This document shows positions 7,093 through 48,285 of a DNA stretch of 64,000 bases, in pieces; position 1 is the first letter of the stretch, and every line of letters begins with the position of its first letter. A program made the position numbers and the translations under genes. Source of the DNA: an uncultured Actinomycetes bacterium (GTDB lineage Bacteria; Actinomycetota; Acidimicrobiia; Acidimicrobiales; Microtrichaceae); NCBI GenBank assembly GCA_903852755.1, contig CAINRS010000057.1:505-64504 (forward strand), in the 5' to 3' direction. The notes beneath the pieces were generated by a model, which was not told the origin of the DNA, made no database searches, and worked only from the letters and a program-made list of their open reading frames with translations.

Positions 7093-7110
7093 ACTGACGC
7101 AGGCGTCAGG
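7093..7110. promoter_or_regulatory. dyad operator copy 1 (ACTGACGCAGGCGTCAGG) in the divergent fadD-like / tetR promoter region
   Basis: Perfect 7+2+7 palindrome CTGACGC-AG-GCGTCAG. On the minus strand TAACCT lies 8 nt before the fadD GTG. On the plus strand TAGGGT (7128-7133) lies 7 nt before the tetR GTG. Confidence 0.75.
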
Positions 7111-7139
7111 TCGTCACCACCGGACGCTAGGGTCGCCGT

Positions 7140-7793
7140 GTGCACGCCGACGCCGCCGACACCAGCCCCGCTCCGTCGCGGGGTGAGGCGACCCGCGCCC
7201 GGCTCCTCGACGCCGGACGGACGGTGTTCGCCCGGCGGGGGTACCGAGCCACGCGTGTCGGCGACATCGTGGCCGAGGCCGGCACCTCCCAGGGCACGTT
7301 CTACCTGTACTTCTCATCCAAGGACGACCTGTTCGACTCGCTCCAGTCGGAGGTCACCTCCGAGTTCACACGGCTCGCCGAGTCCCTGCCCGATCTGGGC
7401 CCGGACCCCGATCGGGTGGCGGCCCTGCAGTCGTGGATCCAGCAGCTGCTGCTCGCCAGCGACCGCCACCGACCCATGCTGCGCGCCGGGACCGAGGCCG
7501 ACAGCACCCGGGGTCGCGAGTCGATCGCCGACCACCTCGGGTCGCTGGGATCGGCACTCGCTGCCCGGAGCGGCCTGCGTGGTCGCCGTTCCTTCGACCC
7601 CGAGGTGGCCGCCCTGGCGCTCGTGTCGACCCTGGAGCGGCTCGACCACATGGCGGGTGACGGCCGACTCGACGTCGGCGACGACGACCTGGCCCGGACG
7701 ACCGCCCGCATCGTGACCGACGCGCTCTACGGGCCGTCGGCCACGGGCGGCGGCGACCGGACCTCCGAACGCGAGCGATCGAGCGCAACCTGA
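7140..7793 (+). CDS. TetR/AcrR family transcriptional regulator
   Basis: N-terminal HTH reads RARLLDAGRTVFARRGYRATRVGDIVAEAGTSQGTFYLYFSSKDDLF. It is divergent from the fadD-like gene. The shared dyad operator sits in its promoter (7093-7110) and across its stop codon (7789-7806). Confidence 0.9.
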   Translation: MHADAADTSPAPSRGEATRARLLDAGRTVFARRGYRATRVGDIVAEAGTSQGTFYLYFSSKDDLFDSLQSEVTSEFTRLAESLPDLGPDPDRVAALQSWIQQLLLASDRHRPMLRAGTEADSTRGRESIADHLGSLGSALAARSGLRGRRSFDPEVAALALVSTLERLDHMAGDGRLDVGDDDLARTTARIVTDALYGPSATGGGDRTSERERSSAT

Positions 7794-7806
7794 CGCTAGT
7801 GTCAGC
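7789..7806. promoter_or_regulatory. dyad operator copy 2 (CCTGACGCTAGTGTCAGC) spanning the tetR stop codon, upstream of the ABC operon
   Basis: Arms are CCTGAC / GTCAGC. The tetR TGA (7791-7793) is inside the left arm. TAGTGT (7797-7802) is a possible -10 box for the SBP operon. Confidence 0.7.
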
Positions 7807-7858
7807 TCTCGAGGTGGACCACCGGGGGGACCACCCACACACCGGGGAGGACGACACC

Positions 7859-9208
7859 GTGACCGAGACCACCACACCCCACCGCAGCAGCCCACTGCGG
7901 TCGCTCGCAGTCACCGCCGTCCTCGCCACAGCGGCGCTCCTCGCCGGGGCGTGTGGCAACTCGGAGTCATCGGGCGGCTCGACGACCACCTCTGCGTCCT
8001 CCCCAGAGACCTCCGCGCTCGACCAGACCAACGTCCCGGTCGACCAGCCCGGTGTGACCGACACCGAGATCCGGGTGGGCGGGGTCGCCTCAGTGACCAA
8101 CCCGCTCGGCGGCAAGTACGGCGACACCTTCCTGGGCGCCCGGGCCTACTTCGAGAAGGTCAACAGCGAGGGCGGGATCTACGGACGCGAGCTGAACCTG
8201 GTGGCCGAACGGGACGACAAGCTCGCCAACAACGCCGCCGAGATCGAGGCGCTCCTGCAACAGGACGACGTCTTCGCCATCCTGCCCATCGCCACCCTGC
8301 TGTTCAGCGGCGCCGACAAGCTCGTCGAGTCGGGCGTCCCGGCGTTCGGTTGGACCATCAACCCGGAGTGGCAGGGCACGCCTGAGGAGCCGAAGTCCAA
8401 CCTGTTCGGCCAGAACGGCTCGTACCTGTGCCTGGGATGCGTCCAACCCCAGGTGCCCTGGGCCGCGAAGCAGGCCGGTGCGACCAAGGCCGGGGTGCTC
8501 GGTTACGCCGTACCGCAGTCCTCACAGTGCGCCGACGGTTGGGAGAAGTCGTTCCAGGAGTACCCCGACGCCGGGGTCGAGGTCGCCTTCAAGGACTCCG
8601 CGCTCTCCTACGGGACGACCGACTTCTCGGTCCAGGTCTCCAAGATGAAGGAGGCCGGCGTCGACTTCGTCGTCACCTGCATCGACAACACCGGTGTCGT
8701 CAACCTCGCCAAGGAACTCAAGAAGCAGGGCGTCGAGGCCGTGCAGTTCCTGCCCAATGCCTACGACCAGGAGCTCCTCGACGAGTTCGGCGACCTGTTC
8801 GAGGGCAGCTTCGCCAGCGTCTCGTTCATCCCGCTCGAGGTGGAGGACAAGCCCCAGGGGATGCAGGACTACCTCGAGTGGATCGAGCAGGTCGGCGGCA
8901 CCCCGAACGAGAATTCCATCGTCGGCTGGCTCAACGCCGCCCTGCTCGTCGAGGGCCTCCGTCAGGCCGGCCCCGAGTTCACCCAGCAGAAGGTGATCGA
9001 CGCCATCAACGCGGACACCAACTGGACCGCTGATGGTTTCCTCACCGGGGTCGACTGGACGAAGTCACACAACCAGCGGGCCGACGTCAACTGCACCCCG
9101 ATCGTCAAGGTGGAGAACTCGGCGTTCGTCCCCCAGACCGGCGCCGACGGCAGGCCCTACGTCTGCTTCGACATCCCGTCCGGGTCGCTCGAGCCGATCA
9201 CCCGGTAG
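7859..9208 (+). CDS. ABC transporter substrate-binding lipoprotein (Liv/Peripla_BP_6 type)
   Basis: Start chosen at GTG 7859, preceded by GGAGG at 7846-7850. Signal peptide plus lipobox LLAGAC. LivJ-like body: IRVGGVASVTNPLGGKYGD...YGRELNLVAERDD. Confidence 0.85.
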   Translation: MTETTTPHRSSPLRSLAVTAVLATAALLAGACGNSESSGGSTTTSASSPETSALDQTNVPVDQPGVTDTEIRVGGVASVTNPLGGKYGDTFLGARAYFEKVNSEGGIYGRELNLVAERDDKLANNAAEIEALLQQDDVFAILPIATLLFSGADKLVESGVPAFGWTINPEWQGTPEEPKSNLFGQNGSYLCLGCVQPQVPWAAKQAGATKAGVLGYAVPQSSQCADGWEKSFQEYPDAGVEVAFKDSALSYGTTDFSVQVSKMKEAGVDFVVTCIDNTGVVNLAKELKKQGVEAVQFLPNAYDQELLDEFGDLFEGSFASVSFIPLEVEDKPQGMQDYLEWIEQVGGTPNENSIVGWLNAALLVEGLRQAGPEFTQQKVIDAINADTNWTADGFLTGVDWTKSHNQRADVNCTPIVKVENSAFVPQTGADGRPYVCFDIPSGSLEPITR

Positions 9209-9223
9209 GGCGGTCGGTCCACG

Positions 9224-11281
9224 GTGCAGCTGCTCGAGTACGCGATCCGGGGAGTCCCCACCGGCTGCGTCTTCGCGCTCCTCGCCGTCGGGCTCGTCCT
9301 GACCTACAAGACCTCAGGGGTGTTCAACCTGGCCTTCGCCGGTCAGGCCTACGTCTCGGCGATCGTCTACTACGAGCTCCGCAAGGAGCTCGAGCTGCCG
9401 CTCGTGGCGGCCGGCGTGATCTCGATCCTGATCGTGGCTCCACTCATCGGCCTGCTGCTCGAGCGCGTCCTGTTCCGGTACCTGCGCTCAGCCGGATCGA
9501 TGGCCAAGCTCGTCACCTCACTGGGTCTGCTGATCGCCATCCCCGAGATCGCCAAGCTCCTCTTCGGGAGCGAGACCCGCCGCAATCCACCCCCGCTGTG
9601 GTGGGTCCGCCGGACCGACGAGTGGCTCTGGCCCGAGGGCGCGACGTTCGTGCTGGACGCCGGGCAGGTCGCCACGATCCTGTCGACCGTGGTCGTCGTG
9701 ATCGGCCTGGTGGTGCTGTTCCGCGCCACCAACCTCGGCCTGCGCATGCGGGCCGTGGTCGAGAGTCCGCGACTCGCCGAGCTCAGCGGCGTGGACAGCG
9801 AGCGGGTGTCCATGGCGGCGTGGATGCTCTCGAGTGTGCTGGCCGGACTCGCCGGGGTGCTCGTCGCACCGCTGTTCGCCTCGCTCAACCCGTTCGACCT
9901 GTTCACCCTGCTCGTGGCGGCGCTCGCCGCAACGGTCTTTGGCGGGCTGACCAGCATCCCGCTGACGTTCCTCGGCGGCATCCTGCTCGGGGTGCTGCAG
10001 GCGGTCCTCGCCGGCACGCTGCCGACCGACAGCGTGCTGACCAACGGCCTGCGTCCGTCGCTGCCGTTCGTGGTCCTGTTCCTGCTGCTGTTGTTCCGAC
10101 CCGGCCTGCGCACGACCCGTGAGCTGACCGACCCACTCGCCAGCGTGGACGCACCTCCCCCTCCCCCGGCGGCCCGGGCCAGGCCGCCGTGGATCGCCAC
10201 GAGCGCCCGCGTGTTCGGCACCGTGGTCTCACTCATCGCAGTCGCCCTCTGCTGGTTCGTGCTCGACTCCTACTGGCTGGGACTCGCGATCAGTGGCCTG
10301 GTGCTCTCGGTCACGATGATGTCGCTGATCGTCGTCGTCGGGATGGGCGGCATGCTCTCGCTGTGCCAGGCGGCGCTGGCCGCCATCGGGGCGTTCGCCA
10401 TGGCCCAGGTGGTCGCCGGGACGGGAGTCCCGGTCGTCCTGGGCCTGGTCGTCGGTGTGGTCGTCGCGGCCGCCATCGGTGCGCTGCTCGCCATCCCGGT
10501 CGTCCGGCTCGACGGCGTGTACCTGGCGCTCGCGACCCTGGCGTTCGCGCTCATGTTCCAGTCGATCTTCGTGCCGCTGTCGTGGGTCAGCGGTGGCGCC
10601 GTGCCCATCACCGTGCCCCGACCGGTGATCGGACCGCTCGACCTGTCCGACGACCGGTACTTCCTGGTGTTCGTCATCGTCTGCGCCGTCGCGACCGCGC
10701 TCGTGGTGATCCGCCTGCGTGAGGGCACCACAGGACGGTTCCTCCAGGCGCTGCAGACCAGCGACGTGGCCGCGGCGTCGATCGGCATCAACGGACCCCG
10801 GGCGCGGGTCGTGGCGTTCACCATCGCCGCAGGGATCGCCGGCTTCGGCGGTGGTCTCGCTGCGATCGACCTGGGTCAGGCCAGCTACGAGGCCAGCTTC
10901 CCCTACCTGATCGGCCTGGTCTGGGTCGCGCTGCTCGTCTCGGCCGGCGCGCGCAGCATCCAGGCTGCCGTGCTCTCGGGTCTCTTCTTCTTCCTGTTCC
11001 CGGCCCTGCTCGACAAGCTGTTCGCCCTCCCCGGCAACTGGGTCGACACCAACCCGGATGCCCCGTCGTGGGTGGCCGGGATCGCCGATGCGATCCAGCC
11101 GACGTGGGCCCAGTCCGTGGCATTCATCCTGTTCGGCATCGGCGCCATCACCTACGCCAAGCACCCCGAGGGGAGCATCGAGGCGCAGACCACTGCATCC
11201 GTCAACGCGATCGTCCGCAGGGTCGAGGCCCGGAACGACCGCCACCGGGTCGCCGCCGGAGCCGGGGGGTCGGCACCGTGA
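9224..11281 (+). CDS. fused branched-chain-type ABC permease (LivH-like and LivM-like domains in one polypeptide)
   Basis: 685 aa and highly hydrophobic. The N half (GVPTGCVFALLAVGLVLTYKTSGVFNLAFAGQ) is LivH-like. The C half (MSLIVVVGMGGMLSLCQAALAAIGAFA) is LivM-like. Confidence 0.85.
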   Translation: MQLLEYAIRGVPTGCVFALLAVGLVLTYKTSGVFNLAFAGQAYVSAIVYYELRKELELPLVAAGVISILIVAPLIGLLLERVLFRYLRSAGSMAKLVTSLGLLIAIPEIAKLLFGSETRRNPPPLWWVRRTDEWLWPEGATFVLDAGQVATILSTVVVVIGLVVLFRATNLGLRMRAVVESPRLAELSGVDSERVSMAAWMLSSVLAGLAGVLVAPLFASLNPFDLFTLLVAALAATVFGGLTSIPLTFLGGILLGVLQAVLAGTLPTDSVLTNGLRPSLPFVVLFLLLLFRPGLRTTRELTDPLASVDAPPPPPAARARPPWIATSARVFGTVVSLIAVALCWFVLDSYWLGLAISGLVLSVTMMSLIVVVGMGGMLSLCQAALAAIGAFAMAQVVAGTGVPVVLGLVVGVVVAAAIGALLAIPVVRLDGVYLALATLAFALMFQSIFVPLSWVSGGAVPITVPRPVIGPLDLSDDRYFLVFVIVCAVATALVVIRLREGTTGRFLQALQTSDVAAASIGINGPRARVVAFTIAAGIAGFGGGLAAIDLGQASYEASFPYLIGLVWVALLVSAGARSIQAAVLSGLFFFLFPALLDKLFALPGNWVDTNPDAPSWVAGIADAIQPTWAQSVAFILFGIGAITYAKHPEGSIEAQTTASVNAIVRRVEARNDRHRVAAGAGGSAP

Positions 11282-12042
11282 CCGCGCCGCTCCTGTCCGC
11301 AGTGGGGGTCACCAAGCGCTACGCCGGCATCGTGGCGCTGCAGAACGTGTCCCTCGAGGTCGGACCCGCCGAGTTCGCCGCCGTCATCGGGCCGAACGGT
11401 GCCGGCAAGAGCACGCTGTTCGACTGCCTCACCGGTGTCCAGCGGCCCGACCGGGGACACGTCCACTTCGACGGTCGACCCGTCGACGGACTCCGTCCGG
11501 CGGCGAGGGCCCGAGCCGGCATGGCCCGCACGTTCCAGCGGATCGAGCTGTTCGGCGGCATGAGCGTGCTCGACCACCTGCTCGTCGCAGACCGCGCCCG
11601 TACCCGTCGCGGCGGGTTGCTCACCGACGTGTTCACCGGTTCCCGACCGTCCTCCGACGAGCTCGACCGGTGCTCGGCGGTGCTCGAACTCCTGGGCCTG
11701 CAGGAGTGGGCCGAACGCCCCGCCGAGTCACTGACACTCGGCCGGGGTCGCCTCGTCGAGCTCGCCCGGGCACTGATGTGCGAGCCCAAGCTCCTCTTCC
11801 TGGACGAACCCTCGAGCGGTCTCGACCGGCACGAGACCGACGAGATGGGTGACGCCCTGCTGCGGGTCCAGTCCGAGCGTGGGCTGGCGATCCTGCTGAT
11901 CGAGCACGACGTGCCGCTGGTGCAACGGCTCGCCGAGCGCATGTACGTCCTGGACTACGGCGAGCTGATCGCCGCCGGCCCGACCGACGAGGTCCTGGCC
12001 GACCAGAAGGTCCGGGTGGCCTACCTGGGGGCGTCGACGTGA
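11278..12042 (+). CDS. ABC transporter ATP-binding protein (LivG-like)
   Basis: Start at GTG 11278 forms a GTGA overlap with the permease stop. Walker A GPNGAGKST, signature LTLGRGRLVELARAL, Walker B LLFLDEPSSGLD. Confidence 0.9.
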   Translation: MTAPLLSAVGVTKRYAGIVALQNVSLEVGPAEFAAVIGPNGAGKSTLFDCLTGVQRPDRGHVHFDGRPVDGLRPAARARAGMARTFQRIELFGGMSVLDHLLVADRARTRRGGLLTDVFTGSRPSSDELDRCSAVLELLGLQEWAERPAESLTLGRGRLVELARALMCEPKLLFLDEPSSGLDRHETDEMGDALLRVQSERGLAILLIEHDVPLVQRLAERMYVLDYGELIAAGPTDEVLADQKVRVAYLGAST

Positions 12043-12836
12043 GCGACCCGGTGCTCGAGCTGGACCACGTGGACGCCGCCTACGGTCCGTTCCGGGCGTT
12101 GTTCGACATCAACCTCCGCGTGGGTGCGGGCGAGGCCGTGGCTCTGGTCGGGGCCAACGGCGCCGGCAAGTCGACCATCGCCCGGGTGGCGAGCGGCCTC
12201 CTGGCACCGACCGCCGGAGCCGTGCTCGTGGACGGCACCGACCTGACGGGTGCGCCACCGTTCCGCTTCGCCCGTGCCGGCATCGCGCACGCCCCCGAGG
12301 GGCGCTCGACCTTCGCATCGCTGACCGTGTCCGAGAACCTGCAGCTCGCGTTCCGCGCTGCACGACCGCGGCGCGACGTGGCCGCCGACCTCGACGAGGC
12401 GTTCACCCTGTTCCCCAGGCTCGGCGAACGACGCGACCAGGTCGCCGGCACCCTGTCGGGCGGCGAGCAGCGGATGCTCGCCCTGGCCCGGGTGCTGGTC
12501 CTGCGACCCCGTCTGCTGATCGCCGACGAGCTCTCGCTCGGACTGGCACCGATCGTCACCGCCGAGGTCTACCGGGTCCTGACCCAGGTCCGCGACGCCG
12601 GCACATCGCTGCTCGTCGTCGAACAACACCTCGACCACGCGCTCGCGCTCGCCCACCGTGTGGTGGTGCTCCAGCAGGGCGAGGTCACCTTCGACGGCGG
12701 ACCGGACGAGCTCGGCGAGCTCTCGGCGACCGTGCTGCTCCCCGCCGGGGCGCCGTCGCGCGCCGAGACCGCCGAGGCCGCCGAGACCGCCGAGACCGCC
12801 GAGACCGCCGAGGACCCCGCAGGTGGAGAACCGTGA
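12039..12836 (+). CDS. ABC transporter ATP-binding protein (LivF-like) with a repetitive acidic C-terminal tail
   Basis: GTGA overlap with the upstream gene. Walker A GANGAGKST, signature LSGGEQRMLALARVL, Walker B LLIADELSLGLAP. The tail reads AETAEAAETAETAETAED. Confidence 0.9.
   Translation: MSDPVLELDHVDAAYGPFRALFDINLRVGAGEAVALVGANGAGKSTIARVASGLLAPTAGAVLVDGTDLTGAPPFRFARAGIAHAPEGRSTFASLTVSENLQLAFRAARPRRDVAADLDEAFTLFPRLGERRDQVAGTLSGGEQRMLALARVLVLRPRLLIADELSLGLAPIVTAEVYRVLTQVRDAGTSLLVVEQHLDHALALAHRVVVLQQGEVTFDGGPDELGELSATVLLPAGAPSRAETAEAAETAETAETAEDPAGGEP
12761..12814 (+). repeat. six tandem 9-bp units (GCCGAGACC and variants) encoding the (AET)n tail of the LivF-like protein
   Basis: GCCGAGACC GCCGAGGCC GCCGAGACC GCCGAGACC GCCGAGACC GCCGAGGAC. 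The array ends 19 nt before the ADH start. Confidence 0.9.
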
Positions 12837-13921
12837 CCGGACGACCGACCCGCATTCCCGCCGCCGTGTACCGCCGACGCCGGGAGGTCCCCGTCGAGGA
12901 GCGGGAACTCCCCGTCCCCGGAGACGGCGAGGTGGTCGTCCAGGTCGCCTACTGCGGCGTGTGCGGGAGCGACCTGCACCTGATCGACGAGGGCTGGGGC
13001 ACTCCGGGGGACGTCCTCGGCCACGAGTGGAGCGGAGTCGTCGTCGAGGTCGGTGCGGGCGTGGATCTCGCAGCCGGCGACGCGGTGGTCGGCGGGCCGG
13101 CCCCCAGGTGCGGAACCTGTCCGGCGTGCGTTGCGGGTCGCCCATCGCAGTGCGGCAACCAGCCCAGGATGACCGGTTCGTTCGACGGTGCCTTCGCCAC
13201 CCACGTCGTCCGCGAACGGTCCCACGTGATCCCCGTGCCCCCCGGCCTGGACCTGCGCACCGCTGCACTCGTCGAACCGCTCGCCGTCGCCCTGCACGCC
13301 ATCACGCGTGCGCAGGTGGACCCCGGCGACGAGGTGCTGGTCTCCGGTGCCGGACCGATCGGTGCCCTCGCCGCAGCGGTGCTCCTCGGACGGGGACACC
13401 GGGTCGTCGTCGTCGAACCGGCCGCAAGCCGCCAGGACCTGGCCCGCGCCATCGGCGCCCACGCCGTCCGCTCCCCCGGCGACCTGCCGACGTTCGACAT
13501 GGCGCAGGTCGACGTGATCGCGGACGAGGCCTTCGACGTGGCCATCGAGACCTCGGGGAAGCGCCCGGCGATGGAGACCGCGCTCCAGCAGCTGCGCCGA
13601 GGTGGCCGACTCGTGCTGGTCGGGACCGGCATGGAGCAGCCGTCGTTCGACCCCAACCGGACGATCGTGCTGGAGCTCACCGTCTGCGGATCGTTCGTCT
13701 ACGACGCCGACGGCTTCGAGAGGGCCCTGGACCTGCTGAGCGGCGGCACCCTCCCGACCGATGCGCTGATCGACCGGGTCGAGTACGGGCTCGACGGCGT
13801 TGCCACCGCCGTGGCCCGGCTCGCCCGCGGCGAACACGCCGGCAAGGTGATGGTGCGTCCGGGCCTGTCGCACGACCAGCACGACCAGCACGACCAGCAC
13901 CGTCAGGAGGAGCGTCCGTGA
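12833..13921 (+). CDS. zinc-dependent alcohol dehydrogenase (MDR superfamily)
   Basis: Motifs YCGVCGSDLHL, GHEWSGVVVEVG, CGTCPACVAGRPSQC and VLVSGAGPIGALAA. GTGA overlaps at both ends. The C-terminus carries an HDQHDQHDQH repeat. Confidence 0.9.
   Translation: MTGRPTRIPAAVYRRRREVPVEERELPVPGDGEVVVQVAYCGVCGSDLHLIDEGWGTPGDVLGHEWSGVVVEVGAGVDLAAGDAVVGGPAPRCGTCPACVAGRPSQCGNQPRMTGSFDGAFATHVVRERSHVIPVPPGLDLRTAALVEPLAVALHAITRAQVDPGDEVLVSGAGPIGALAAAVLLGRGHRVVVVEPAASRQDLARAIGAHAVRSPGDLPTFDMAQVDVIADEAFDVAIETSGKRPAMETALQQLRRGGRLVLVGTGMEQPSFDPNRTIVLELTVCGSFVYDADGFERALDLLSGGTLPTDALIDRVEYGLDGVATAVARLARGEHAGKVMVRPGLSHDQHDQHDQHRQEERP
13871..13906 (+). repeat. tandem 9-bp units (CACGACCAG three times plus the variant CACCGTCAG) encoding HDQHDQHDQHRQ at the ADH C-terminus
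   Basis: Read directly from the sequence. The array runs into the AGGAGGAG RBS of the VOC gene. Confidence 0.9.
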
Positions 13922-14361
13922 GACAGGAGCTGTACCCGGCCGGGGTGCCCCGGCTGAACCACGTTGCGGTGTCGCTCCCCCCGGACCGGCTCGACGCCGA
14001 GGGCCGGGCCGCCATCACCGACTTCTACGGTGCGTGCTTCGGGTGGGTTGAGCTCGACTCCGAGACGGTCGACCGGAGGAAGCTGATCCTGGCCATCGGG
14101 CACTGGGACCAGTTCCTGTTCATCCACGCCGAGGACGAACCCATGCGCTCACCACGCATGGACCACTTCGGGGTTTCCGTGAGCTCGCTCGCCGACCTGG
14201 AGGCGACCCACGCCCGGGTCGCCGACCGGGCCGCCACTGACCCGGCCATCGACGTGATCGGGCTGAGCGTCGACGACTTCGACGTGCTCAAGGTCCACTC
14301 GTTCTACGTGCGGCACCTCCTCCCGATCATGGTGGAGGTCCAGTACTGGGAGTTCCCGTGA
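13918..14361 (+). CDS. VOC (glyoxalase/bleomycin-resistance/dioxygenase) family protein
   Basis: C-terminal 147 aa of ORF 12658..14361 reads RLNHVAVSLPPDRL...FYGACFGW...MDHFGVSV. GTG 13918 is preceded by AGGAGGAG and overlaps the ADH stop (GTGA). Confidence 0.7.
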   Translation: MRQELYPAGVPRLNHVAVSLPPDRLDAEGRAAITDFYGACFGWVELDSETVDRRKLILAIGHWDQFLFIHAEDEPMRSPRMDHFGVSVSSLADLEATHARVADRAATDPAIDVIGLSVDDFDVLKVHSFYVRHLLPIMVEVQYWEFP

Positions 14362-18643: not shown

Positions 18644-18658
18644 CCCGCCCGGGCCGGA

Positions 18659-19144: not shown

Positions 19145-19159
19145 TTAGCATCGGGTTCC

Positions 19160-35058: not shown

Positions 35059-35067
35059 GCCGGGACC

Positions 35068-38108: not shown

Positions 38109-38113
38109 CGGGA

Positions 38114-38131
38114 ACTGACACTAACGTCAGG
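38114..38131. promoter_or_regulatory. dyad operator copy 9 (ACTGACACTAACGTCAGG) between divergent CoA-transferase and acyl-CoA ligase genes
   Basis: Occupies most of the 28-nt gap 38109-38136. The internal TAACGT (38122-38127) lies 10 nt before ATG 38137. Confidence 0.75.
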
Positions 38132-38136
38132 TCGCC

Positions 38137-39654: not shown

Positions 39655-39659
39655 CGGCC

Positions 39660-41230: not shown

Positions 41231-41255
41231 ACCGGCGGGGCCACCGGCTGGGGTG

Positions 41256-41273
41256 ACTGACACGGGCGTCAGG
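41256..41273. promoter_or_regulatory. dyad operator copy 10 (ACTGACACGGGCGTCAGG) upstream of the HMGCS-like/DUF35 fusion operon
   Basis: Followed by TACTGT (41274-41279) and GTG 41287, the same geometry as copy 3. Confidence 0.75.
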
Positions 41274-41286
41274 TACTGTGTCGCCC

Positions 41287-42744
41287 GTGGTGCGTGCACG
41301 AGCCCTCGACGTGTCGATCGCCGCCGTCGGCGTGGCGGCCCCCGAGTGGCGGGTCCCCGTCGCATCGATCGACGCGGCCTGGGGTCGCTCCCCCGGCCGC
41401 GGAACCCTCGCCGTGTGCAGATCCGACGAGGATCCACTCACCCTCGCGTGGGCCGCTGCGGACCGGGCGGTCGCCGCCGCCGGAGTCGCACCATCCGGCA
41501 TCGACGGGATGTGGTGGGGCTGCACCCGGCCGCCCTTCGCCGAGGGGCCGAGCTGGTCGACGCTCGCCGCGACCCTGCACCTCGCGCCCGAGGCCGACGG
41601 CGCGCTCCTGTCGGGGTCCACCCACGCCGGTCTCGACGCCCTGCTCGCTGCGGCCGACGCCGTGGCGGCCGGTCGCGTCGACACCGCGCTCGTGGTCACC
41701 TCGGACGCGCTCCTGCCGGCGACCGGCACCGGCCACGAGACCTCGGCCGGGGCCGGCGCCGCTGCGTTGCTGCTCCGGCGCGACGGCGGCCCAGCCCGGC
41801 TGGTGCACACCGCCCACCGCTGGGAACCCCGGCTCGACCGCTACCGGGGCGACCGCGAGCCCGAGACACGGGAGACCTACGACGGCCGCCTGTTCCGGGA
41901 GCAGGCCTACCTGCCCATGCTCGGCGCCGTGGGCGACGCCCTGCTCGTCGACGCGACGGACGCCGGGCGCTGGTCGCTCCCCGACCCGGACGGTCGGCTC
42001 GCCCGGGCACTCGCCAAGCGCTTGCGGGCCGGCACGACCTCGGCCCAGGACGTCGCGGCAGCCGACCGCACCCGACTCGGTGACCTCGGCAGCGCCGCGA
42101 CGCTCGTCGGCGCCGCCGCAGCACTCGGCAGCCCCGGTCCGCTGCACCTGCTCGGCGTGGGCGGTGGTCGGGCGACGGGGTGCACCGTGATCGTCGACGC
42201 CCCGGTGCCGGGGGCCGAGCGGGTCACTGCGGACCTGTCCGGCGGCGAGGAGGTCGCCTACACCCGGGTGCTCCGGTCCCGCGGGGTGCTGCGCCCCACC
42301 GGCGAGTCGGTCGAGATGGCCGTGCCGCCCGGGAGCGCCATGTTCGGACGGGGCGCCGGCGAGATGCTGGGACTGCTCGCCGCCCGCTGCGTCGACTGCG
42401 GGACGATGAACACTCCGCCCGACGTGCACCCCACCTGCATCTCGTGCGGGTCCACGAAGTTCGACGTGGTGCCGCTCGGCCGGACCGGCACGGTGCAGAC
42501 GTTCGTGGTCAACCGCACCATGCCGTCACCGTTCGAGGCTCCCCTGCCGCTCGTGGTCGTGGACCTCGACGACGGCGGGCGGATCCAGCTCCAGGGCGGC
42601 GACGACGGTGCCGAGCTGTCCATCGGCGCCCCGGTCGACCTGGTGCTGCGCAGGTACGCCGTGGAGCGCGGGGTGCCGGTCTACGGCTGGAAGGTCCTGA
42701 CCCGCCGGCCGGTGGCCGGGACCGACGAGGAGGTCACGTCGTGA
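41287..42744 (+). CDS. HMG-CoA synthase / KAS III-fold domain fused to a C-terminal DUF35 module (catalytic residues apparently missing)
   Basis: N domain: ASIDAAWGRSPGRG..., GCTRPPFAEGP, SGSTHAGLDALLAA, HETSAGAGAAALLL. C domain: Zn-ribbon RCVDCGTMNTPPDVHPTCISCGS plus an OB fold (GTVQTFVVNR...LVVVDLDDGGRIQLQG). GTG 41287 lies 8 nt after the TACTGT -10 box. GTG 41278 or 41290 are alternatives. Confidence 0.75.
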   Translation: MVRARALDVSIAAVGVAAPEWRVPVASIDAAWGRSPGRGTLAVCRSDEDPLTLAWAAADRAVAAAGVAPSGIDGMWWGCTRPPFAEGPSWSTLAATLHLAPEADGALLSGSTHAGLDALLAAADAVAAGRVDTALVVTSDALLPATGTGHETSAGAGAAALLLRRDGGPARLVHTAHRWEPRLDRYRGDREPETRETYDGRLFREQAYLPMLGAVGDALLVDATDAGRWSLPDPDGRLARALAKRLRAGTTSAQDVAAADRTRLGDLGSAATLVGAAAALGSPGPLHLLGVGGGRATGCTVIVDAPVPGAERVTADLSGGEEVAYTRVLRSRGVLRPTGESVEMAVPPGSAMFGRGAGEMLGLLAARCVDCGTMNTPPDVHPTCISCGSTKFDVVPLGRTGTVQTFVVNRTMPSPFEAPLPLVVVDLDDGGRIQLQGGDDGAELSIGAPVDLVLRRYAVERGVPVYGWKVLTRRPVAGTDEEVTS

Positions 42745-43919
42745 GCTGGAACCGGGTGGCCGTGGTCGGCGCCGGCCTCATCCACATGGGCGAACTGTTC
42801 GACCAGTCCTACGAGCAGATGGCGCGGGGCGCGTTCGACGCCGCGGTCGACTCGGTCGACCACGGGTTCGACCCGACGGCGATCGACGCCGTGTTCGTCG
42901 CCACCCAGCGGGGGACGCTGTGGGGCCAGGAGGGCATCGGCGGCAACACCATCCCGTCGGCCATCGGCCTCGCCGGGGTCGCCTGCACCCGGGTCGAGAA
43001 CGCGTGTCCGACCGGGTCCGACGCCTTCCGGGTGGGATGCATGGCCGTCGCCTCGGGCGTCCACGACGTCGTGCTCGTGATCGGGGTCGAGAAGATGCGC
43101 GACAAGTCCTCCGACGAGGGCCTGCTCGCGCGGGCGGCCGCCGGGCACCCCGTCTACACCAGGGGTGAGTCGGCACCGGTGCTGTTCGCCCCGTTCGCGA
43201 CCCGGCACATGCACGAGTTCGGCACGACCCGCGAGATGCTGGCCTCGGTGGCGGTCAAGAACCACCACAACGGCGTGCTCGACCCGTACGCGCACTTCCG
43301 CAACGAGGTCACCATCGAGCAGGTCCTCGCCGCGCCGCCGGTGTGCTCACCACTGCACCTGCTCGACTGCTGCCCGCAGACCGACGGCGCGGCGGCGATC
43401 ATCATCACCGCTCCCGAACGGGCGGCGGACTTCACCGACCGGCCCGTGTTCGTGGCGGGCTTCGGCGTGGCCACCGACCACCCGTACCTGCACGAGAAGT
43501 CGACCTACGTCGGACTCCCGGCGACGGTCGAGGCGTCCCGCCGGGCCTACGAGATGGCAGGCATCTCACCGGCCGACGTCGACGTCGCCGAGGTCCACGA
43601 CTGCTTCACGATCACCGAGATCCTGGACATCGAGGACCTGGGGTTCGTCGAGAAGGGCCGGGGCGGGGTGGCGTCGCTCGAGGGTGAGACGGTGCTCGAC
43701 GGGAGGATCCCGGTCAACCCGTCCGGCGGCCTGCTCGCCAAGGGGCACCCGATCGGCGCCACCGGGATCGCCCAGCTCACCGAGTGCTGGTGGCAGCTCC
43801 GGGGCCAGGCCGACGAACGACAGGTGGCGATCCGCAACGGGTTCGCACTGCAGCACAACGTGGGGGGACGCGGGTCCGGCGTCTCGGTGGTGAACATCCT
43901 CACCACCAACGCGTCGTGA
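42741..43919 (+). CDS. thiolase (SCP-x/Ltp type, catalytic Cys present)
   Basis: Start at GTG 42741 forms a GTGA overlap. Sequence: RVAVVGAGLIHMGE, VENACPTGSDAF, NPSGGLLAKGHPIGATGIAQ, QHNVGG. Confidence 0.88.
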   Translation: MSWNRVAVVGAGLIHMGELFDQSYEQMARGAFDAAVDSVDHGFDPTAIDAVFVATQRGTLWGQEGIGGNTIPSAIGLAGVACTRVENACPTGSDAFRVGCMAVASGVHDVVLVIGVEKMRDKSSDEGLLARAAAGHPVYTRGESAPVLFAPFATRHMHEFGTTREMLASVAVKNHHNGVLDPYAHFRNEVTIEQVLAAPPVCSPLHLLDCCPQTDGAAAIIITAPERAADFTDRPVFVAGFGVATDHPYLHEKSTYVGLPATVEASRRAYEMAGISPADVDVAEVHDCFTITEILDIEDLGFVEKGRGGVASLEGETVLDGRIPVNPSGGLLAKGHPIGATGIAQLTECWWQLRGQADERQVAIRNGFALQHNVGGRGSGVSVVNILTTNAS

Positions 43920-44713
43920 TCCGCTTCGACGTCGGCGACGACCACGTCGGCCGCATCACCCTGGACCGGCCCGACGCCGCCAACGCCCTCACGGTCGAGA
44001 TGCGCGACGAGATCGTCGAGCGGGTGCGCGAGTGCCGGGAGCGTGACGATGTCCGCGCCGTGCTGCTGACGGCCACCGGCGAGTCGTTCTGCTCGGGCAT
44101 GGACCTGCGGGGCTCCACCGTTGCGAAGGCGGGAACCGAGGACTTCGACCCCCGCTCCACCTCGCAGGCGCTCCGGGTCGGCGTGCAGACGTTCATCCGG
44201 GAGCTGTGGGAACTCGACAAGCCGACCGTGGCCGCCGTGCAGGGCGCGGCCGTCGGACCCGGGGCGCACCTGGCCCTGGCGTGCGACTTCGTGCTGACCT
44301 GCGACCGCACCACCTTCATGTGGAGCTTCGCCCGGTGGGGGCTCGTCGTCGACGCGGGCGGTGCGTACCTGCTCCCCCGGCTGGTCGGTCTGCCGCGTGC
44401 CAAGGCGATGGTCATGCTCGGCGAGCGGGTGTCCGGCACCGAGGCGGTCGACCTGGGACTCGCCTACCGCCACGTCGGGATGGCCGACACCATGGCGACG
44501 ACCGCCGACGAGCTCGCCGTGCAACTCGCCGCCGGTCCGACCCGCTCGCTGGGCCTGTCCAAGGCACTGCTCAACCGGTCGTTCGAGACCTCACTCCCCG
44601 ACAGCCTGGAGCTCGAGGGTCACTTCCAGTCGCTCGCCACCGCGTCGGCCGACCTGGTCGAGGGCATGGCGGCGTTCCGGGAGAAGCGACCGCCCGACTT
44701 CACCGGCCACTGA
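43916..44713 (+). CDS. enoyl-CoA hydratase/isomerase
   Basis: Start at GTG 43916 forms a GTGA overlap. Sequence: GRITLDRPDAANAL, TGESFCSGMDL, VQGAAVGPGAHLALACDFVL, AFREKRPPDF. Confidence 0.88.
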   Translation: MIRFDVGDDHVGRITLDRPDAANALTVEMRDEIVERVRECRERDDVRAVLLTATGESFCSGMDLRGSTVAKAGTEDFDPRSTSQALRVGVQTFIRELWELDKPTVAAVQGAAVGPGAHLALACDFVLTCDRTTFMWSFARWGLVVDAGGAYLLPRLVGLPRAKAMVMLGERVSGTEAVDLGLAYRHVGMADTMATTADELAVQLAAGPTRSLGLSKALLNRSFETSLPDSLELEGHFQSLATASADLVEGMAAFREKRPPDFTGH

Positions 44714-44774
44714 CCGGTGCCGTGGCGCACCGCCGCCGAGGTGGCGGCACCACCGCTGTGACACCATCGTCGGA

Positions 44775-46811
44775 GTGAGCGGGACCGACCACCACCGTCC
44801 CGACGTCCAGGGCCTCCGGGCCGTGGCAGTGCTCGCTGTGGTGGCATTCCACGTCGGCGACAGTCCGATCGCCCGCAACCGGGGCGTGGGCGGGGTCGAA
44901 CTGCTCCCCGGCGGGTTCACCGGAGTCGACGTCTTCTTCGTCATCTCCGGGTTCGTGATCACGGCGCTCCTGCTGCGCCGTGCCGACCGGGACGGGGGTG
45001 TGGCCCTGCGGGACTTCGCCGCTCGCCGGGTCCGACGGATCCTGCCGGCGCTCGCTCTGATGTCGGTGGTCGTGCTGGCGCTCGGCATCGTCGTCCTCGA
45101 CCCGTTCGGGGCGCAGCAGTTCGCAGCCCGGACATCGATGGCCGCGGCCCTGCTCGGTGCCAACGTCTACCTGTACCGCCACACCGGCTACTTCGACTCA
45201 TCGGCGGCCGCCAACCCGTTCCTGCACACCTGGTCGCTGTCGGTCGAGGAGCAGACGTACCTGCTCCTGCCACTCGGCGTCGCACTCGCCGCCGCGGTCG
45301 CGCTCCGACGGCGTCGGTCGACGGCGTGGTGCGTCGGAGCGGGTGCAGTCGCCGTCGCCGCGACCTCGTTCGCGCTCGCGGTCGCGCTCAGCGCCGGTTG
45401 GGGAACATCGGTGGTCCAGGCGCCGGAGCGCCTGTCCTTCCTGGCCGCACCGACCCGGTGGTGGGAGTTCGCGGCGGGAGCGCTGGTGGCTGCGTGGGCG
45501 TCGCACCCGCGGCAGCTCCCCCGTCGGGTCGCCGCAGTGCTCGGGATCGCCGGGCTGGTGGCCATCGTCGGCGGTGCCCTCCGACTGGGACCCGGAACAC
45601 CCTGGCCCTCGCTGTGGACACTCGTGCCGGTACTGGGAACGGTCGGCGTCCTGGTGGCCGGGGCGACGACCAACCCCGCCGGTCAGCTCCTGTCGAGTCG
45701 ACCCCTCGGGTGGATCGGCGACCGCTCGTACGCCTGGTACCTGTGGCACTGGCCCTGCATCGTGCTCGCCGCCGCCATCTGGCCCAGCCTGGCGTGGATC
45801 CCCGCCGTTGCCGCCGTCGCGTCGCTGCTGCCGGCGGCCGCGTCGTACCGCTGGGTGGAGCAACCGCTTCGACACGACTCCTCGATCGTCGGACGGCGGG
45901 CGGCGCTCCTGGGAGCCGTGTGCACCGGGGCGGTCCTGCTCGTCGGGCTGATCGTGCTCACCGGGGCCGACCGGGGCTGGGGACTGCGCGAGGAGGACGG
46001 CTGGTACGACCGACCCGAGGGACGCAACGTCGGATGCCTCCAGCTCAACCGGGATCTGCGCGCCGACTGGCCCGAGACCGCATGCACGTCTCCCCCGCCT
46101 CCCGGAGGCGCCGGTACGGTGCTGGTGCTCGGTGATGCGCAGGCGAGCGGCGTCACCCCGGCCGTGATCGATGCAGCGGCGTCGCTCGGGCTCGGGACCA
46201 CCGAGTGGAACCGCGCAGGATGCCCGTTCCTGGCGCGGGCACCGCTCGACGCACCGGGATGCGGCGACTGGCAGGTGCAGGCGTGGTCACTGGTCGAACG
46301 GCTGCGCCCAGCGGCCGTGGTGCTCGCCGCCGACGAGTCCGCCTACACGGGTGTCGCCGGCTCCGGGGAGTTGCTGGGTGACGCGGACGGGAACGCACCG
46401 GCGACGGATGCAGACGCAGCCGCCAACTGGGCTGGGGCGCTGGCAGCGACGCTCGACAGGCTCGACGCACTCGGCATCCCCGCAGTCGTGGTCGGCGGTG
46501 CACCGGATCTCGGCCCGACGTTCCCTCGGGACGTGCAGTCGCTGCTCCGACCCCATCCACCTGTCCCACAGGTCGACCTCACAGCAGCGCAACGGCGTCG
46601 CAGCAGCGTGTGGGAGCAGCAGGAGCAGACGGTCCGGGATCACCCGACGGCGACGCTGGTCGACCCGCTGCCGGTGCTGTGCGACCCCGTGTGCCGGGGG
46701 GTCGTCGACGGCGTGTGGCGATTCCACGAGCGCAATGAACTCACCAACGCCGGGAGCCGACTGCTGACGGACGAACTCCGGACGGCACTCGGCCGACTGA
46801 CCGGCCGCTGA
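44775..46811 (+). CDS. membrane acyltransferase family 3 (OafA/YrhL type) with a C-terminal SGNH-like domain
   Basis: GLRAVAVLAVVAFH, VDVFFVISGFVIT, HTWSLSVEEQTYL, followed by about 10 TM segments. The extracytoplasmic tail contains VLVLGDAQASG. Start GTG 44775 is tentative. Confidence 0.8.
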   Translation: MSGTDHHRPDVQGLRAVAVLAVVAFHVGDSPIARNRGVGGVELLPGGFTGVDVFFVISGFVITALLLRRADRDGGVALRDFAARRVRRILPALALMSVVVLALGIVVLDPFGAQQFAARTSMAAALLGANVYLYRHTGYFDSSAAANPFLHTWSLSVEEQTYLLLPLGVALAAAVALRRRRSTAWCVGAGAVAVAATSFALAVALSAGWGTSVVQAPERLSFLAAPTRWWEFAAGALVAAWASHPRQLPRRVAAVLGIAGLVAIVGGALRLGPGTPWPSLWTLVPVLGTVGVLVAGATTNPAGQLLSSRPLGWIGDRSYAWYLWHWPCIVLAAAIWPSLAWIPAVAAVASLLPAAASYRWVEQPLRHDSSIVGRRAALLGAVCTGAVLLVGLIVLTGADRGWGLREEDGWYDRPEGRNVGCLQLNRDLRADWPETACTSPPPPGGAGTVLVLGDAQASGVTPAVIDAAASLGLGTTEWNRAGCPFLARAPLDAPGCGDWQVQAWSLVERLRPAAVVLAADESAYTGVAGSGELLGDADGNAPATDADAAANWAGALAATLDRLDALGIPAVVVGGAPDLGPTFPRDVQSLLRPHPPVPQVDLTAAQRRRSSVWEQQEQTVRDHPTATLVDPLPVLCDPVCRGVVDGVWRFHERNELTNAGSRLLTDELRTALGRLTGR

Positions 46812-46812
46812 G

Positions 46813-47004
46813 TCACCCCTCGATCGTCAGGGCGTCCTCCGGGCAGGACGCCACCGCCAGACGGGCCGCCGCCTCCAACTCGGCCGGCGGTTCGGTGAGC
46901 AGCACCACGCAGTGTCCCAGGTCGTCGGCATCGAACACCTGCGGGGCCAGGGCGTAGCACCGTCCGTGACCGACGCAGGCCTGCTCGTCGAACACGATCC
47001 GCAT
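46813..47004 (-). CDS. small single-cluster ferredoxin (3Fe-4S type, P450 redox partner)
   Basis: Start at ATG 47004 shares one nucleotide with the P450 stop (TGATG). Sequence: MRIVFDEQACVGHGRCYALAP...ASCPEDALTIEG. Confidence 0.85.
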   Translation of the reverse strand: MRIVFDEQACVGHGRCYALAPQVFDADDLGHCVVLLTEPPAELEAAARLAVASCPEDALTIEG

Positions 47005-48224
47005 CACTCCACCGCCTCGGCGACCACCGGGTCGAACACGAGTGGGAGCGACACGATCTCCCGGATTCCCGGTGAGTACTCCAGGTGCGCCCCCTCGGCG
47101 ACGGTGTAGTCGGGGATCCGGCGGTGCCACTCCTCGAGTGCGACACGGAGTTCGAGGCGCGCGAGGTGCGAGCCGAGACAGCGGTGCGGACCACCCCCGA
47201 ACGCCAGGTGCCGGTTGACCTCACGGGTGGCATCGAACTCCGAGGCGTCCTCGCCGAACTCGGACGGATCGGTGTCCGCGGAGCCGAGCATCAACATGAC
47301 GGTGTCACCGACCTCGAACTGGTGCCCGTGCAACTCGACCGGCTGGGCCACCGCCCGCAGGATCTGCATGACCGGGGTGTGGAAGCGGAGCATCTCCTCC
47401 ACGGCCGCCGGCACGATGGACGGGTCGTCCGCGATGAGCGCCCGCTGCACCGGGTCCTGGGCCAGGTGGGCCAGCGAGCAGTCCAGGGTCGAGGTCACCG
47501 TGTCCAGTCCGCCGAGGATGAACAGGTAGCAGATGTCGAGCATCTCCTCCTTGGACATCGTGCGGCCGTCGACCTCGGAGGTGAGGAACCGGGTGAGCAG
47601 ATCGGTGCCGGTGCCGCCGCGCCGCTGCTCGATGGCGTCCTCGAAGTACGCGTACAGCGCCGCTCCGGTGGCCCGCCGGACCCTGGCGTCCTCCTCGGGA
47701 TCACCCGTGTTGGGCCGGATGATGTTGTCCTTGAACTCGAGGAGTTGCTGGAGGTGCTCGAGAGGGAGGCCGCACATGCTCAGGAAGACGATGCACGGGA
47801 GCGGCACGGTGAACTCGGCGTGGGCGTCCACGGTGCCCCGGCCCACGAAGCCATCGAGGATCTCGTTGACGACCGACCGGAGCTCGTCCTCGAGCGGGGC
47901 CACCTCGTGCGGGCCGATGGTCGGATCGATCACCCGGCGGTACTTCGCGTGCTCGGGCGGGTCGATCTGCAGCGGGATGAGCGGCCGGTCCTGGCCGATG
48001 TCGACGGCAACGAAGTCCGAGCTGAAGATCTCCGGGTGCTTGAGGGCCCAGCGGACGTCCTCGTACCGGCTGATGATCCAGGTCCCCCGTCCGAAGCCCT
48101 CGAACATCGCCACCGGCAGGTGGTCCCGCAGCCGCTCGTAGAACGGGATCGGGTTGGCTGCGACCTCGGGCAGGTACGGGTTCGCCTCGCCCGTGTCCGG
48201 GTTGACGGCGGCTCCGGGATCCAT
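47004..48224 (-). CDS. cytochrome P450 monooxygenase
   Basis: 406 aa. I-helix LFILGGLDTVTS, EEMLRF (ExxR), heme loop FGGGPHRCLGSHLA. RBS GGGGAGG lies 6 nt upstream of the ATG. Confidence 0.93.
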   Translation of the reverse strand: MDPGAAVNPDTGEANPYLPEVAANPIPFYERLRDHLPVAMFEGFGRGTWIISRYEDVRWALKHPEIFSSDFVAVDIGQDRPLIPLQIDPPEHAKYRRVIDPTIGPHEVAPLEDELRSVVNEILDGFVGRGTVDAHAEFTVPLPCIVFLSMCGLPLEHLQQLLEFKDNIIRPNTGDPEEDARVRRATGAALYAYFEDAIEQRRGGTGTDLLTRFLTSEVDGRTMSKEEMLDICYLFILGGLDTVTSTLDCSLAHLAQDPVQRALIADDPSIVPAAVEEMLRFHTPVMQILRAVAQPVELHGHQFEVGDTVMLMLGSADTDPSEFGEDASEFDATREVNRHLAFGGGPHRCLGSHLARLELRVALEEWHRRIPDYTVAEGAHLEYSPGIREIVSLPLVFDPVVAEAVE

Positions 48225-48267
48225 CGTGACCTCCCCGGGGGACCCTGCGTCCCCGCGAGCGACACTC

Positions 48268-48285
48268 TATGACACGCGTGTCAGG
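48268..48285. promoter_or_regulatory. dyad operator copy 11 (TATGACACGCGTGTCAGG) upstream of the P450-ferredoxin operon
   Basis: The inner 14 bp, TGACACGCGTGTCA, is a perfect palindrome. On the minus strand the degenerate arm merges into TAGAGT, a -10-like box about 40 nt upstream of the P450 ATG. Confidence 0.7.

Follow-up and report, generated by a model that had tools for sequence, protein, structure and literature searches.

A stretch of 64,000 nucleotides of contig CAINRS010000057.1 (assembly GCA_903852755.1), from an uncultured Microtrichaceae bacterium of the order Acidimicrobiales, carries eleven copies of a short palindrome among genes of coenzyme A (CoA) thioester catabolism; this whole stretch is called the window here. 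The question that the locus raises is which protein reads these copies and what it controls through them. The palindrome is very probably the operator of a TetR-family repressor, g7, whose gene (tetR) lies inside the cluster, and the predicted regulon comprises 11 operators, 16 predicted promoters and ~38 genes. An earlier note on this DNA had proposed a local repressor regulon of at least 12 transcription units. The regulon itself is supported by the placement of the copies at promoters only, by their bracketing of tetR, by their persistence at orthologous promoters and by the rarity of the motif elsewhere; concerning its size, 16 promoters were counted instead.

The palindrome and its placement

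Based on the core dyad CTGACNNNNNNGTCAG (CTGAC-N6-GTCAG), the window contains 10 exact matches (starting at 7094, 7790, 17453, 19128, 22693, 27098, 30315, 33318, 38115 and 41257), whereas 0.14 are expected, and none of 100 shuffles reached 10. An eleventh dyad, at 48269, has one mismatch (ATGAC...GTCAG), and the eleven copies claimed earlier are thus confirmed as ten exact and one near-exact. When two mismatches are allowed, 46 dyads are found against 53 expected, which is no enrichment. We also built a symmetrised weight matrix of 28 columns from the 11 window sites and ran it on the 64 kb: the 11 sites score 24.7-33.4 bits and the next best position 8.8. The motif is therefore all-or-none, because the two-mismatch search adds chance matches only and the weight-matrix scores are bimodal. 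Beyond the cluster, in the other 23 kb of the window, the matrix finds no dyads; lone half-sites occur at chance frequency (9 found, 7.7 expected).

The full element is a 20-bp palindrome, A-C-CTGAC-R-C-N-N-G-Y-GTCAG-G-T (consensus of the dyad: ACCTGACRCNNGYGTCAGGT), and the similarity between copies ends at these 20 bp. It is longer than the 18-bp form first described, (A/C)CTGAC-N6-GTCAGG, which fits most sites but not those at 7790 (GTCAGC), 33318 (GTCAGA) and 48268 (TATGAC); the inner pattern ACGNNC/GNNCGT, given as the usual one, is found in 7 of the 11 sites. Two relations between copies had been read correctly: copy 27097 is the exact reverse complement of copy 30314, and copies 17452 and 33317 are one base apart. 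TGAC-R...Y-GTCA is invariant in 68 of 68 half-sites (34 sites, 9 loci), a figure which is partly circular, as the 34 sites were chosen with the matrix itself. All 68 half-sites have a purine at dyad position 6, and 55 have C at position 7. An asymmetry of A and G at position 6, seen in 9 of 11 window sites, was dropped, since it is present in only 13 of 23 sites elsewhere. When the literature was searched for the motif strings, primers and unrelated sequences were all that came up, and no paper with the motif was found.

Gene calling in the window, by a codon-usage model that had been trained on its own sequence, gave 58 genes, which were annotated with Pfam. All 11 dyads lie outside the called genes, in gaps or at gene boundaries, and none is complete within a coding region; both statements of the earlier note agree with the gene calls. 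Three dyads touch a gene end: the dyad at 7790 contains the TGA stop codon of tetR, and positions 10-12 of the dyads at 19128 and 22693 supply the GTG starts of g18 (19134) and of g22 (22702, its first in-frame start), respectively. Ahead of its conserved domain, g18 has no further start codon in frame. Five dyads are found between divergent genes, where each would serve two divergent promoters, and five between co-directional genes.

The -10 core of actinobacterial promoters is TAnnnT. This hexamer occurs 34 times in the 128 kb of both strands of the window (G+C ~72%), and 14 occurrences are at dyads. It is present at 13 of 16 gene-facing dyad orientations vs 1 of 6 orientations which face no gene start. 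The hexamer takes three fixed places, namely the upstream edge of the dyad (TAACCT, position -3), the 6-bp spacer (position 8) and the bases just after the dyad (positions 16-19). Because TAnnnT is so rare in DNA of 72% G+C, its coincidence with the dyad amounts to a promoter map. Also, 18 of the 34 occurrences fall in 2.2 kb of intergenic DNA, and in this organism TAnnnT is close to a promoter marker by itself. A shared -35 element was sought upstream of the -10 hexamers and none was seen; standard promoter and terminator scans gave nothing at the dyad sites, the sigma-70 consensus being a poor model for this organism.

In seven cases, by our own reading of the sequence, the start codon is found 7-9 nt past the hexamer. 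For this reason g6, g17 (ATG 17483), g18, g19, g32 (ATG 33301), g40 (GTG 41287) and the pair g36/g37 look leaderless. The divergent ATGs of g36 and g37 are 28 bp apart, the dyad makes up 16 of these, and TAACGT and TAGTGT are both located in its spacer. The control regions thus appear extremely compact, with two divergent, apparently leaderless genes and both -10 hexamers in the 6-bp spacer of a 28-bp region. In the operator of the P450 unit the single mismatch (G to T) gives the first T of the -10 hexamer TAGAGT. The predicted -10 of tetR (TAGGGT) is conserved; the annotated GTG follows it after 4 nt in the window and after 9 nt in an orthologous locus, L001 (window 7094-7140; L001 4251-4298), so that the start codon or the transcription start of tetR in the window is uncertain.

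The operators are as follows; L numbers denote the related loci described below.

Operator 1, 7094..7109, CTGACGCAGGCGTCAG: exact, 24.7 bits, between the divergent g6 (acyl-CoA ligase) and tetR; on the minus strand TAACCT directly after it, then 7 nt, then the g6 GTG at 7080; kept in L001 at 4251 and L083 at 9932.
Operator 2, 7790..7805, CTGACGCTAGTGTCAG: exact, 29.3 bits, overlapping the tetR stop codon, upstream of the operon of an ATP-binding cassette (ABC) importer; -10-like TAGTGT inside the spacer; identical in L083 at 10627, one mismatch in L001 at 4918, equivalents at the tetR 3' end in L163 and L164.
Operator 3, 17453..17468: 33.4 bits, upstream of g17 (SCP-x-type thiolase-like), whose ATG at 17483 comes 7 nt after a TACTGT at dyad position 18.
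Operator 4, 19128..19143: 30.9 bits, between the divergent g18 (DUF35) and g19 (acyl-CoA dehydrogenase); plus strand TAGCAT, 8 nt, GTG 19160; minus strand TAACCT overlapping the dyad edge.
Operator 5, 22693..22708: 29.6 bits, between the divergent g21 (enoyl-CoA hydratase) and g22 (sulfotransferase).
Operator 6, 27098..27113: 32.3 bits, ahead of the unit g25-g24-g23 (MaoC hydratase, aldehyde dehydrogenase, DUF1214); the minus strand has TAGCAT at position 18 and a Shine-Dalgarno sequence ahead of ATG 27053.
Operator 7, 30315..30330: 30.6 bits, upstream of g28-g27-g26 (acyl-CoA dehydrogenase pair, short-chain dehydrogenase); minus strand TAACCT overlapping the upstream edge of the dyad.
Operator 8, 33318..33333: 32.8 bits, between units g32-g29 and g33-g35, which diverge; on the minus strand TAGTGT is followed after 8 nt by ATG 33301, and on the plus strand the edge has TAACCT; L165 (18008) and L167 (17444) have orthologous sites.
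Operator 9, 38115..38130, CTGACACTAACGTCAG: 30.2 bits, in the 28-bp gap between the divergent g36 (CoA-transferase) and g37 (acyl-CoA ligase); ATG 38137 and ATG 38108 each 6 nt from the dyad; the same 16 bases in L165 at 9992 and L166 at 9979.
Operator 10, 41257..41272: 27.8 bits, upstream of g40-g42 (fusion of a 3-hydroxy-3-methylglutaryl (HMG)-CoA-synthase-like part and DUF35, thiolase, enoyl-CoA hydratase); TACTGT, 7 nt, GTG 41287; orthologous sites in L165 at 4668 and L166 at 6898.
Operator 11, 48269..48284, ATGACACGCGTGTCAG: one mismatch, 25.6 bits, upstream of g45-g44 (cytochrome P450, ferredoxin); read on the minus strand, the -10-like TAGAGT begins with the mismatched T; its GTCAT variant also in L166 at 1920 and L167 at 4608.

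Half-sites are also seen in two repeats of the window. At 27123-27189 a 23-bp tandem repeat of 2.9 copies, GAGGCGGTCAGGTGGCGTCCGGG, adjoins the operator at 27098 and reaches into the 3' end of g26; each repeat unit contains a GTCAGGT half-site, and the repeat looks like a local duplication of the flank of that operator. At 1845-1889, between the divergent g2 (enoyl-CoA hydratase) and g3, a 22-bp direct repeat, CCTGAC(A/G)CACCGGGT, is present twice, with one perfect operator half-site per unit and the second half absent; TACGGT, 9 nt and the g3 GTG at 1896 follow. The orthologous gap of L083 (~4703) keeps one half-site copy, followed by TAGTGT. This repeat may be a twelfth target, of a half-site type, or a relic.

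The TetR protein g7 as candidate binder

The gene of g7 (7140..7793, plus strand) encodes a TetR-family protein of 217 amino acids, with PF00440 at residues 22-67 (5e-18), and this is the only transcription factor that Pfam found in the 41-kb cluster. Its AlphaFold2 model (predicted local distance difference test score 87) has ten helices in the all-helical, two-domain TetR fold, whose C-terminal domain is that of ligand binding and dimerisation. Compared with PDB structures, the model gives 210 matches at E<=1e-3, and the best 50 listed are all TetR-family proteins, with KstR as the top structural neighbour. The named NCBIfam TetR families were searched and g7 is below the cut-off for every one.

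We tie the dyad to g7 because of three kinds of evidence: its co-occurrence with g7 orthologues, its persistence at orthologous promoters, and an association between the dyad and helix 2 of the DNA-binding domain. Concerning the first, dyads bracket g7 (7094, 7790) and its orthologues in 6 of 6 loci with tetR, down to 37% identity:

L001, TetR 79% identical to g7: sites at 4251 and 4918.
L083, TetR 68%: sites at 9932, 10627 and 77.
L163, TetR 41%: sites at 9996, 10741 and 17206.
L164, TetR 41%: sites at 6572 and 7311.
L084, TetR 37%, from a genome of 57% G+C: sites at 2661, 9956 and 15490.

The L084 sites are found at the ligase/dehydrogenase unit, in the divergent region between the MaoC and short-chain dehydrogenase genes and tetR, and in front of the gene of the ABC binding protein. 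Sites of at least 18 bits number 22 in 140 kb of orthologous loci vs 4 in 2.0 Mb of other TetR-homologue loci. Also, the inner RC-NN-GY signature is specific to the regulon loci, whereas other homologues show dyads of the TGACTGA type.

For the helix-2 association, 142 distinct TetR homologues with enough upstream sequence were used, all of which have the helix-3 motif QGTFYLYF, and a TGAC-N6-GTCA dyad was looked for from -250 to +40 of the homologue's own gene. It is present in 31 of 48 homologues with the helix-2 type of g7 (...V-S/G-D-I-V) and in 5 of 94 with other types (Fisher p=4e-14). Going by these sequences, the TetR proteins of TGAC-N6-GTCA dyads form a predicted class of DNA specificity across phyla. 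Homologues with the helix-2/helix-3 type of g7 (among loci L003-L162) are found in Paenibacillus, Desulfobacterales, Chloroflexota, Myxococcota and others; TGAC-N6-GTCA dyads lie just upstream of their own genes, often as CTGACTGA...TCAGTCAG (for example L008 at 9963, L093 at 964 and L138 at 9934, and also in L036 and L067).

A metagenome scan with g7 gave one close orthologue (L083) and one distant (L084); the rest share the helix-turn-helix region only and were reused as a control set. A scan of the GTDB representative genomes found nothing above 35% identity, in an exact-peptide-word search which shows the absence of close relatives only, and the plasmid collection has no g7 relative above 34% over most of the protein.

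According to the proposed mechanism, a g7 homodimer would bind each 20-bp palindrome, ACCTGAC-RC-NN-GY-GTCAGGT. Since each operator overlaps or touches a predicted -10 hexamer or transcription start, bound g7 would exclude RNA polymerase from the 16 promoters and silence the ~38 genes jointly, tetR itself among them. The silenced set would comprise the ABC importer, three acyl-CoA ligases, the CoA-transferase, acyl-CoA dehydrogenases, hydratases, short-chain dehydrogenases, thiolase/DUF35 pairs, and the P450 with its ferredoxin. An effector would then free the repressor; the likeliest candidates are the CoA thioester that the ligase of the pathway produces and the acid itself, as imported.

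Several points weigh against this reading. What the sequences show directly is the sites, their placement, their conservation and their co-occurrence with tetR; from these we infer g7 binding, repression rather than activation, the leaderless starts and the identity of the effector. Three gene-facing orientations (7094 on the plus strand and 22693 on both strands) are without TAnnnT. The structural neighbours KstR, FasR, PfmR, FadR, EthR and DarR match g7 equally well (E about 1e-5), and no effector is pointed to by them; an effector class was sought in the structure search and given up, acyl-CoA-sensing TetR proteins being inseparable from other TetR proteins there. Finally, four related loci (L165-L168) have operators and no tetR in the 20 kb fetched.

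This last point speaks for an alternative in which another regulator, encoded outside the window, binds the dyad, for instance another TetR protein of the same helix-turn-helix class, and g7 is a mere target. The size of the TGAC-N6-GTCA class, which is large and found in several phyla, and the LuxR- or SARP-type regulators near the operators of L165 and L167 also favour it. However, the bracketing of g7 or its orthologue in every locus with tetR, the restriction of the inner signature to these loci and the lack of a second regulator among the Pfam annotations of the 41 kb argue for g7, and we regard an outside regulator as improbable. There is a smaller chance still, and a slight one, that g7 binds the dyad as an activator or dual regulator, as the TetR-type FasR does. 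Some TetR-family proteins activate, FasR is among the structural neighbours of g7, and for tetR itself the dyad sits roughly at the -35 region; however, at 13 of 16 promoters the dyad overlaps the -10 hexamer or the start, a position which typifies steric repression and from which the same was argued for KstR (PMC1995591), and two start codons are located inside dyads. It is very unlikely that the palindrome forms a hairpin in RNA or DNA, as a terminator or processing site, or belongs to a repeat of the repetitive extragenic palindromic or miniature inverted-repeat transposable element type: a 7-bp stem with a 6-nt loop is possible and the five sites between co-directional genes would suit it, but no T run follows any site, the terminator scan is negative at all of them, the five sites between divergent start codons have nothing to terminate, the stem is invariant in sequence and shows no compensatory changes, the would-be loop positions R6, C7, G10 and Y11 are also conserved, and the 20-bp limit of similarity, the chance level of half-sites, the empty 23 kb and the restriction of sites to predicted promoters do not fit a repeat.

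Genes of the cluster and conservation of the regulon

The gene content given in the earlier note agrees with the Pfam annotation. The predicted transcription units are:

4197..7080, minus strand: unit g6-g5, acyl-CoA ligase and acyl-CoA dehydrogenase (gene calls, Pfam); orthologues adjoin the L084 site at 2661.
7859..15359, plus strand: unit g8-g14, start 7859 as in the public collection (gene calls, Pfam).
17483..27053: six units under operators 3-6, g17 (plus), g18 (minus), g19 (plus), g21-g20 (minus), g22 (plus) and g25-g23 (minus).
27176..48224: seven units under operators 7-11, g28-g26 (minus), g32-g29 (minus), g33-g35 (plus), g36 (minus), g37-g39 (plus), g40-g42 (plus; possibly also with g43) and g45-g44 (minus).

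By segment, the genes encode the following.

4.2-15.4 kb: acyl-CoA dehydrogenase, acyl-CoA ligase, g7, ABC importer, Zn-dependent alcohol dehydrogenase and luciferase-like monooxygenase.
17.5-48.2 kb: several thiolase-like/DUF35 pairs, a TLP1-type thiolase-like protein, acyl-CoA dehydrogenases (one two-gene pair), enoyl-CoA hydratases, MaoC-type hydratases, short-chain dehydrogenases, an aldehyde dehydrogenase, two more acyl-CoA ligases, a fused CoA-transferase, a sulfotransferase, the HMG-CoA-synthase-like/DUF35 fusion, an acyltransferase-3/SGNH protein, a ferredoxin and the P450.
Beyond 48.3 kb: tRNA-Val, then housekeeping genes (Mur ligase, D-Ala-D-Ala ligase, Tad pilus genes, ribosomal protein S1).

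The g8-g14 unit contains an importer of the branched-chain-amino-acid type (binding protein, fused permease, two ATPases) and three further genes, for the Zn-dependent alcohol dehydrogenase, an unknown 147-amino-acid protein and the luciferase-like monooxygenase. In L084 (15490) and L163 (17206), too, a site lies ahead of the gene of the orthologous binding protein. The only stretch of the cluster which lacks an operator is 15316-17426; it holds a DUF222 open reading frame, a RibD_C fragment, ~600 bp with no convincing gene and, at 16626-16934, several short tandem repeats. Insertion or decay may account for this region, which separates g17 from the operon of the importer. On the right, the catabolic cluster is bordered by tRNA-Val (anticodon CAC; 48386-48460, minus strand), ~100 bp past the last operator. 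It could be an old integration point; the G+C content has no break there. Among the housekeeping products encoded beyond it, ribosomal protein S1 is far closer to the mycobacterial protein (571 bits) than to that of Escherichia coli (397 bits), and the contigs nearest to the window are from metagenome assemblies of JGI and ENA.

In g40 (41287-43919) the HMG-CoA-synthase-like N-terminal part is fused to a C-terminal DUF35 OB-fold domain, and the thiolase g41 is next to it. The N-terminal part matches NCBIfam PRK04262 at 2.5e-25, which is below the cut-off. In a catabolic context, g40-g41 are reminiscent of the thiolase/HMG-CoA synthase/DUF35 complex of archaea.

The regulon was also followed in related loci fetched around orthologues of the CoA-transferase g36; g36 homologues at 65-72% identity are labelled Acidimicrobiales or Microtrichaceae.

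L166, g36 87% identical: operators at the P450 unit, the g40 unit and the g36/g37 region.
L165, g36 80%: operators at the g40 unit, the g36/g38 region and the g33/g32 region.
L167 (record named Microtrichaceae), g36 72%: operators at the P450 unit, at the start of the orthologue of g34 (acyl-CoA dehydrogenase; 15910) and upstream of the g32 orthologue (17444), a strong site (9327) beside the orthologue of g38 (DUF35), and immediately ahead of g36 a weak site of 12 bits.
L168 (GCA_025490995.1, JAOQHZ010000003.1), g36 69%: four sites, at 787, 5768, 12954 and 21188.
L169, g36 66%, on a 2.9-Mb contig: no site.

The operators persist across L165-L168 despite a changed gene order. The L168 gene set is partly different: one site is found between divergent acyl-CoA dehydrogenase genes, one between acyl-CoA dehydrogenase and short-chain dehydrogenase genes, and one where a PhyH-family dioxygenase gene starts; downstream of another site a CoA-transferase of family III (PF02515) is encoded. 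Since L169 has no site, the regulon spans only part of the Acidimicrobiales. The 16-bp g36/g37 operator is identical in three genomes, spacer included, and the GTCAT variant of the P450 promoter is also kept in three genomes; both fit -10 hexamers embedded in the operator.

Concerning the substrate, the operator-bearing set kept in L084, L163 and L164 (importer, ligase, acyl-CoA dehydrogenase, MaoC hydratase and short-chain dehydrogenase) suggests that the pathway is a beta-oxidation of an unusual carboxylate. The structures nearest to the P450 are CYP101D, CYP143 and CYP125, which do not identify a substrate, and a PDB sequence search with the ABC binding protein g8 was without a match. The PhyH gene at the L168 site hints at a methyl-branched (isoprenoid-type) acid. 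The less usual parts of the regulon are the HMG-CoA-synthase-like/DUF35 fusion by a thiolase, the fused CoA-transferase of ~555 amino acids, the sulfotransferase and the CYP101-like P450, to which the related genome adds the PhyH-family dioxygenase and the family III CoA-transferase (PF02515). Tentatively, and with considerable doubt, operator and g7 might be the master switch of an undescribed pathway for a bulky or methyl-branched isoprenoid or cyclic carboxylic acid, confined to an uncultured freshwater clade of Acidimicrobiales.

The predicted regulon delimits ~38 genes as one functional unit in a lineage without cultured representatives or genetics, and offers a defined pathway for lake metatranscriptomes and a defined protein-DNA pair for the laboratory. 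The many genes that appear leaderless may aid start-codon annotation in Acidimicrobiia. Also, the link of the helix-2 type (...V-S/G-D-I-V) and QGTFYLYF to TGAC-N6-GTCA in several phyla can be used as a rule by which operators are predicted for TetR proteins not yet characterised.

Comparison with known systems

TetR regulators of fatty-acid metabolism genes include FadR/YsiA of Bacillus, which is reported to be fatty acyl-CoA-dependent, and FadR of Sulfolobus acidocaldarius (PMC5397183, PMC6449355). Bacillus FadR matches the DNA-binding domain of g7 (E=1e-8); however, g7 scores 38.8 bits, whereas the NCBIfam FadR cut-off is 200. The operator sequences of TetR-type FadR proteins differ from the dyad found here. 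Mce3R is reported to bind a non-palindromic site (PMC11667970).

A precedent for the proposed binding by g7 comes from Thermus thermophilus. PfmR (TTHB023) binds CTGACCGATCGGTCAG and SbtR (TTHA0167) binds TGACYrnnyRGTCA, with a Kd of ~2 nM; both are TetR repressors of fatty-acid and phenylacetate genes and some of their sites are located in bidirectional promoters (PMC7022988). The outer half-sites, (C)TGAC/GTCA(G), and the 6-bp spacing are the same as in the dyad here (PMC7022988), and the earlier description of the regulon as distinct has to be qualified accordingly. The inner bases differ, being CCGATCGG in PfmR and Y-r-n-n-y-R in SbtR vs R-C-N-N-G-Y here. Point mutants of the PfmR operator at inner positions lower the affinity 25- to 130-fold (PMC7022988). 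PfmR (3vpr) resembles g7 at the level of the fold only (rank 18, 22% identity) and is outside the top 60 sequence matches. Going by operator, fold and sequence matches, the g7 system does not appear to be a member of the PfmR/SbtR family.

In its organisation the system resembles KstR (Rv3574), whose operator is TnnAACnnGTTnnA, with 16 intergenic sites in Mycobacterium tuberculosis (PMC1995591). Both are self-regulating TetR repressors, by prediction in the case of g7, with a short palindrome at many promoters, many of them divergent and with the -10 overlapped, and with acyl-CoA ligases, acyl-CoA dehydrogenases, hydratases, thiolases and P450s as targets (PMC1995591). The operators differ, TnnAACnnGTTnnA vs ACCTGACRCNNGYGTCAGGT, and the earlier statement that the motif is unlike the KstR operator holds against the published sequence (PMC1995591). 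KstR is not among the best 60 PDB sequence matches of g7 and its structure match has 20-23% identity only. The hosts are also different (Mycobacterium and Rhodococcus, of the Mycobacteriales, vs Acidimicrobiales), as are the transporters, Mce4 in the KstR regulon and a branched-chain-amino-acid-type ABC system in the window. KstR2 has the operator AnCAAGnnCTTGnT, which is also unlike the dyad; in a PDB sequence search its protein matches g7 in the helix-turn-helix region only (E=2.6e-6). The gene content had been likened to that of a sterol regulon; a sterol substrate is not indicated, as none of the genes for steroid uptake (Mce4) and ring opening (kshA, kstD, hsa) was found by Pfam among the 58 called genes. 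The g7 system is not a member of the KstR family: the operator differs, the protein is no orthologue and the steroid genes are absent. The understanding of TetR regulons is unchanged by it, and the predicted regulon is a clean new example of a well-known type of switch, in an uncultured freshwater actinobacterium of the Acidimicrobiales.

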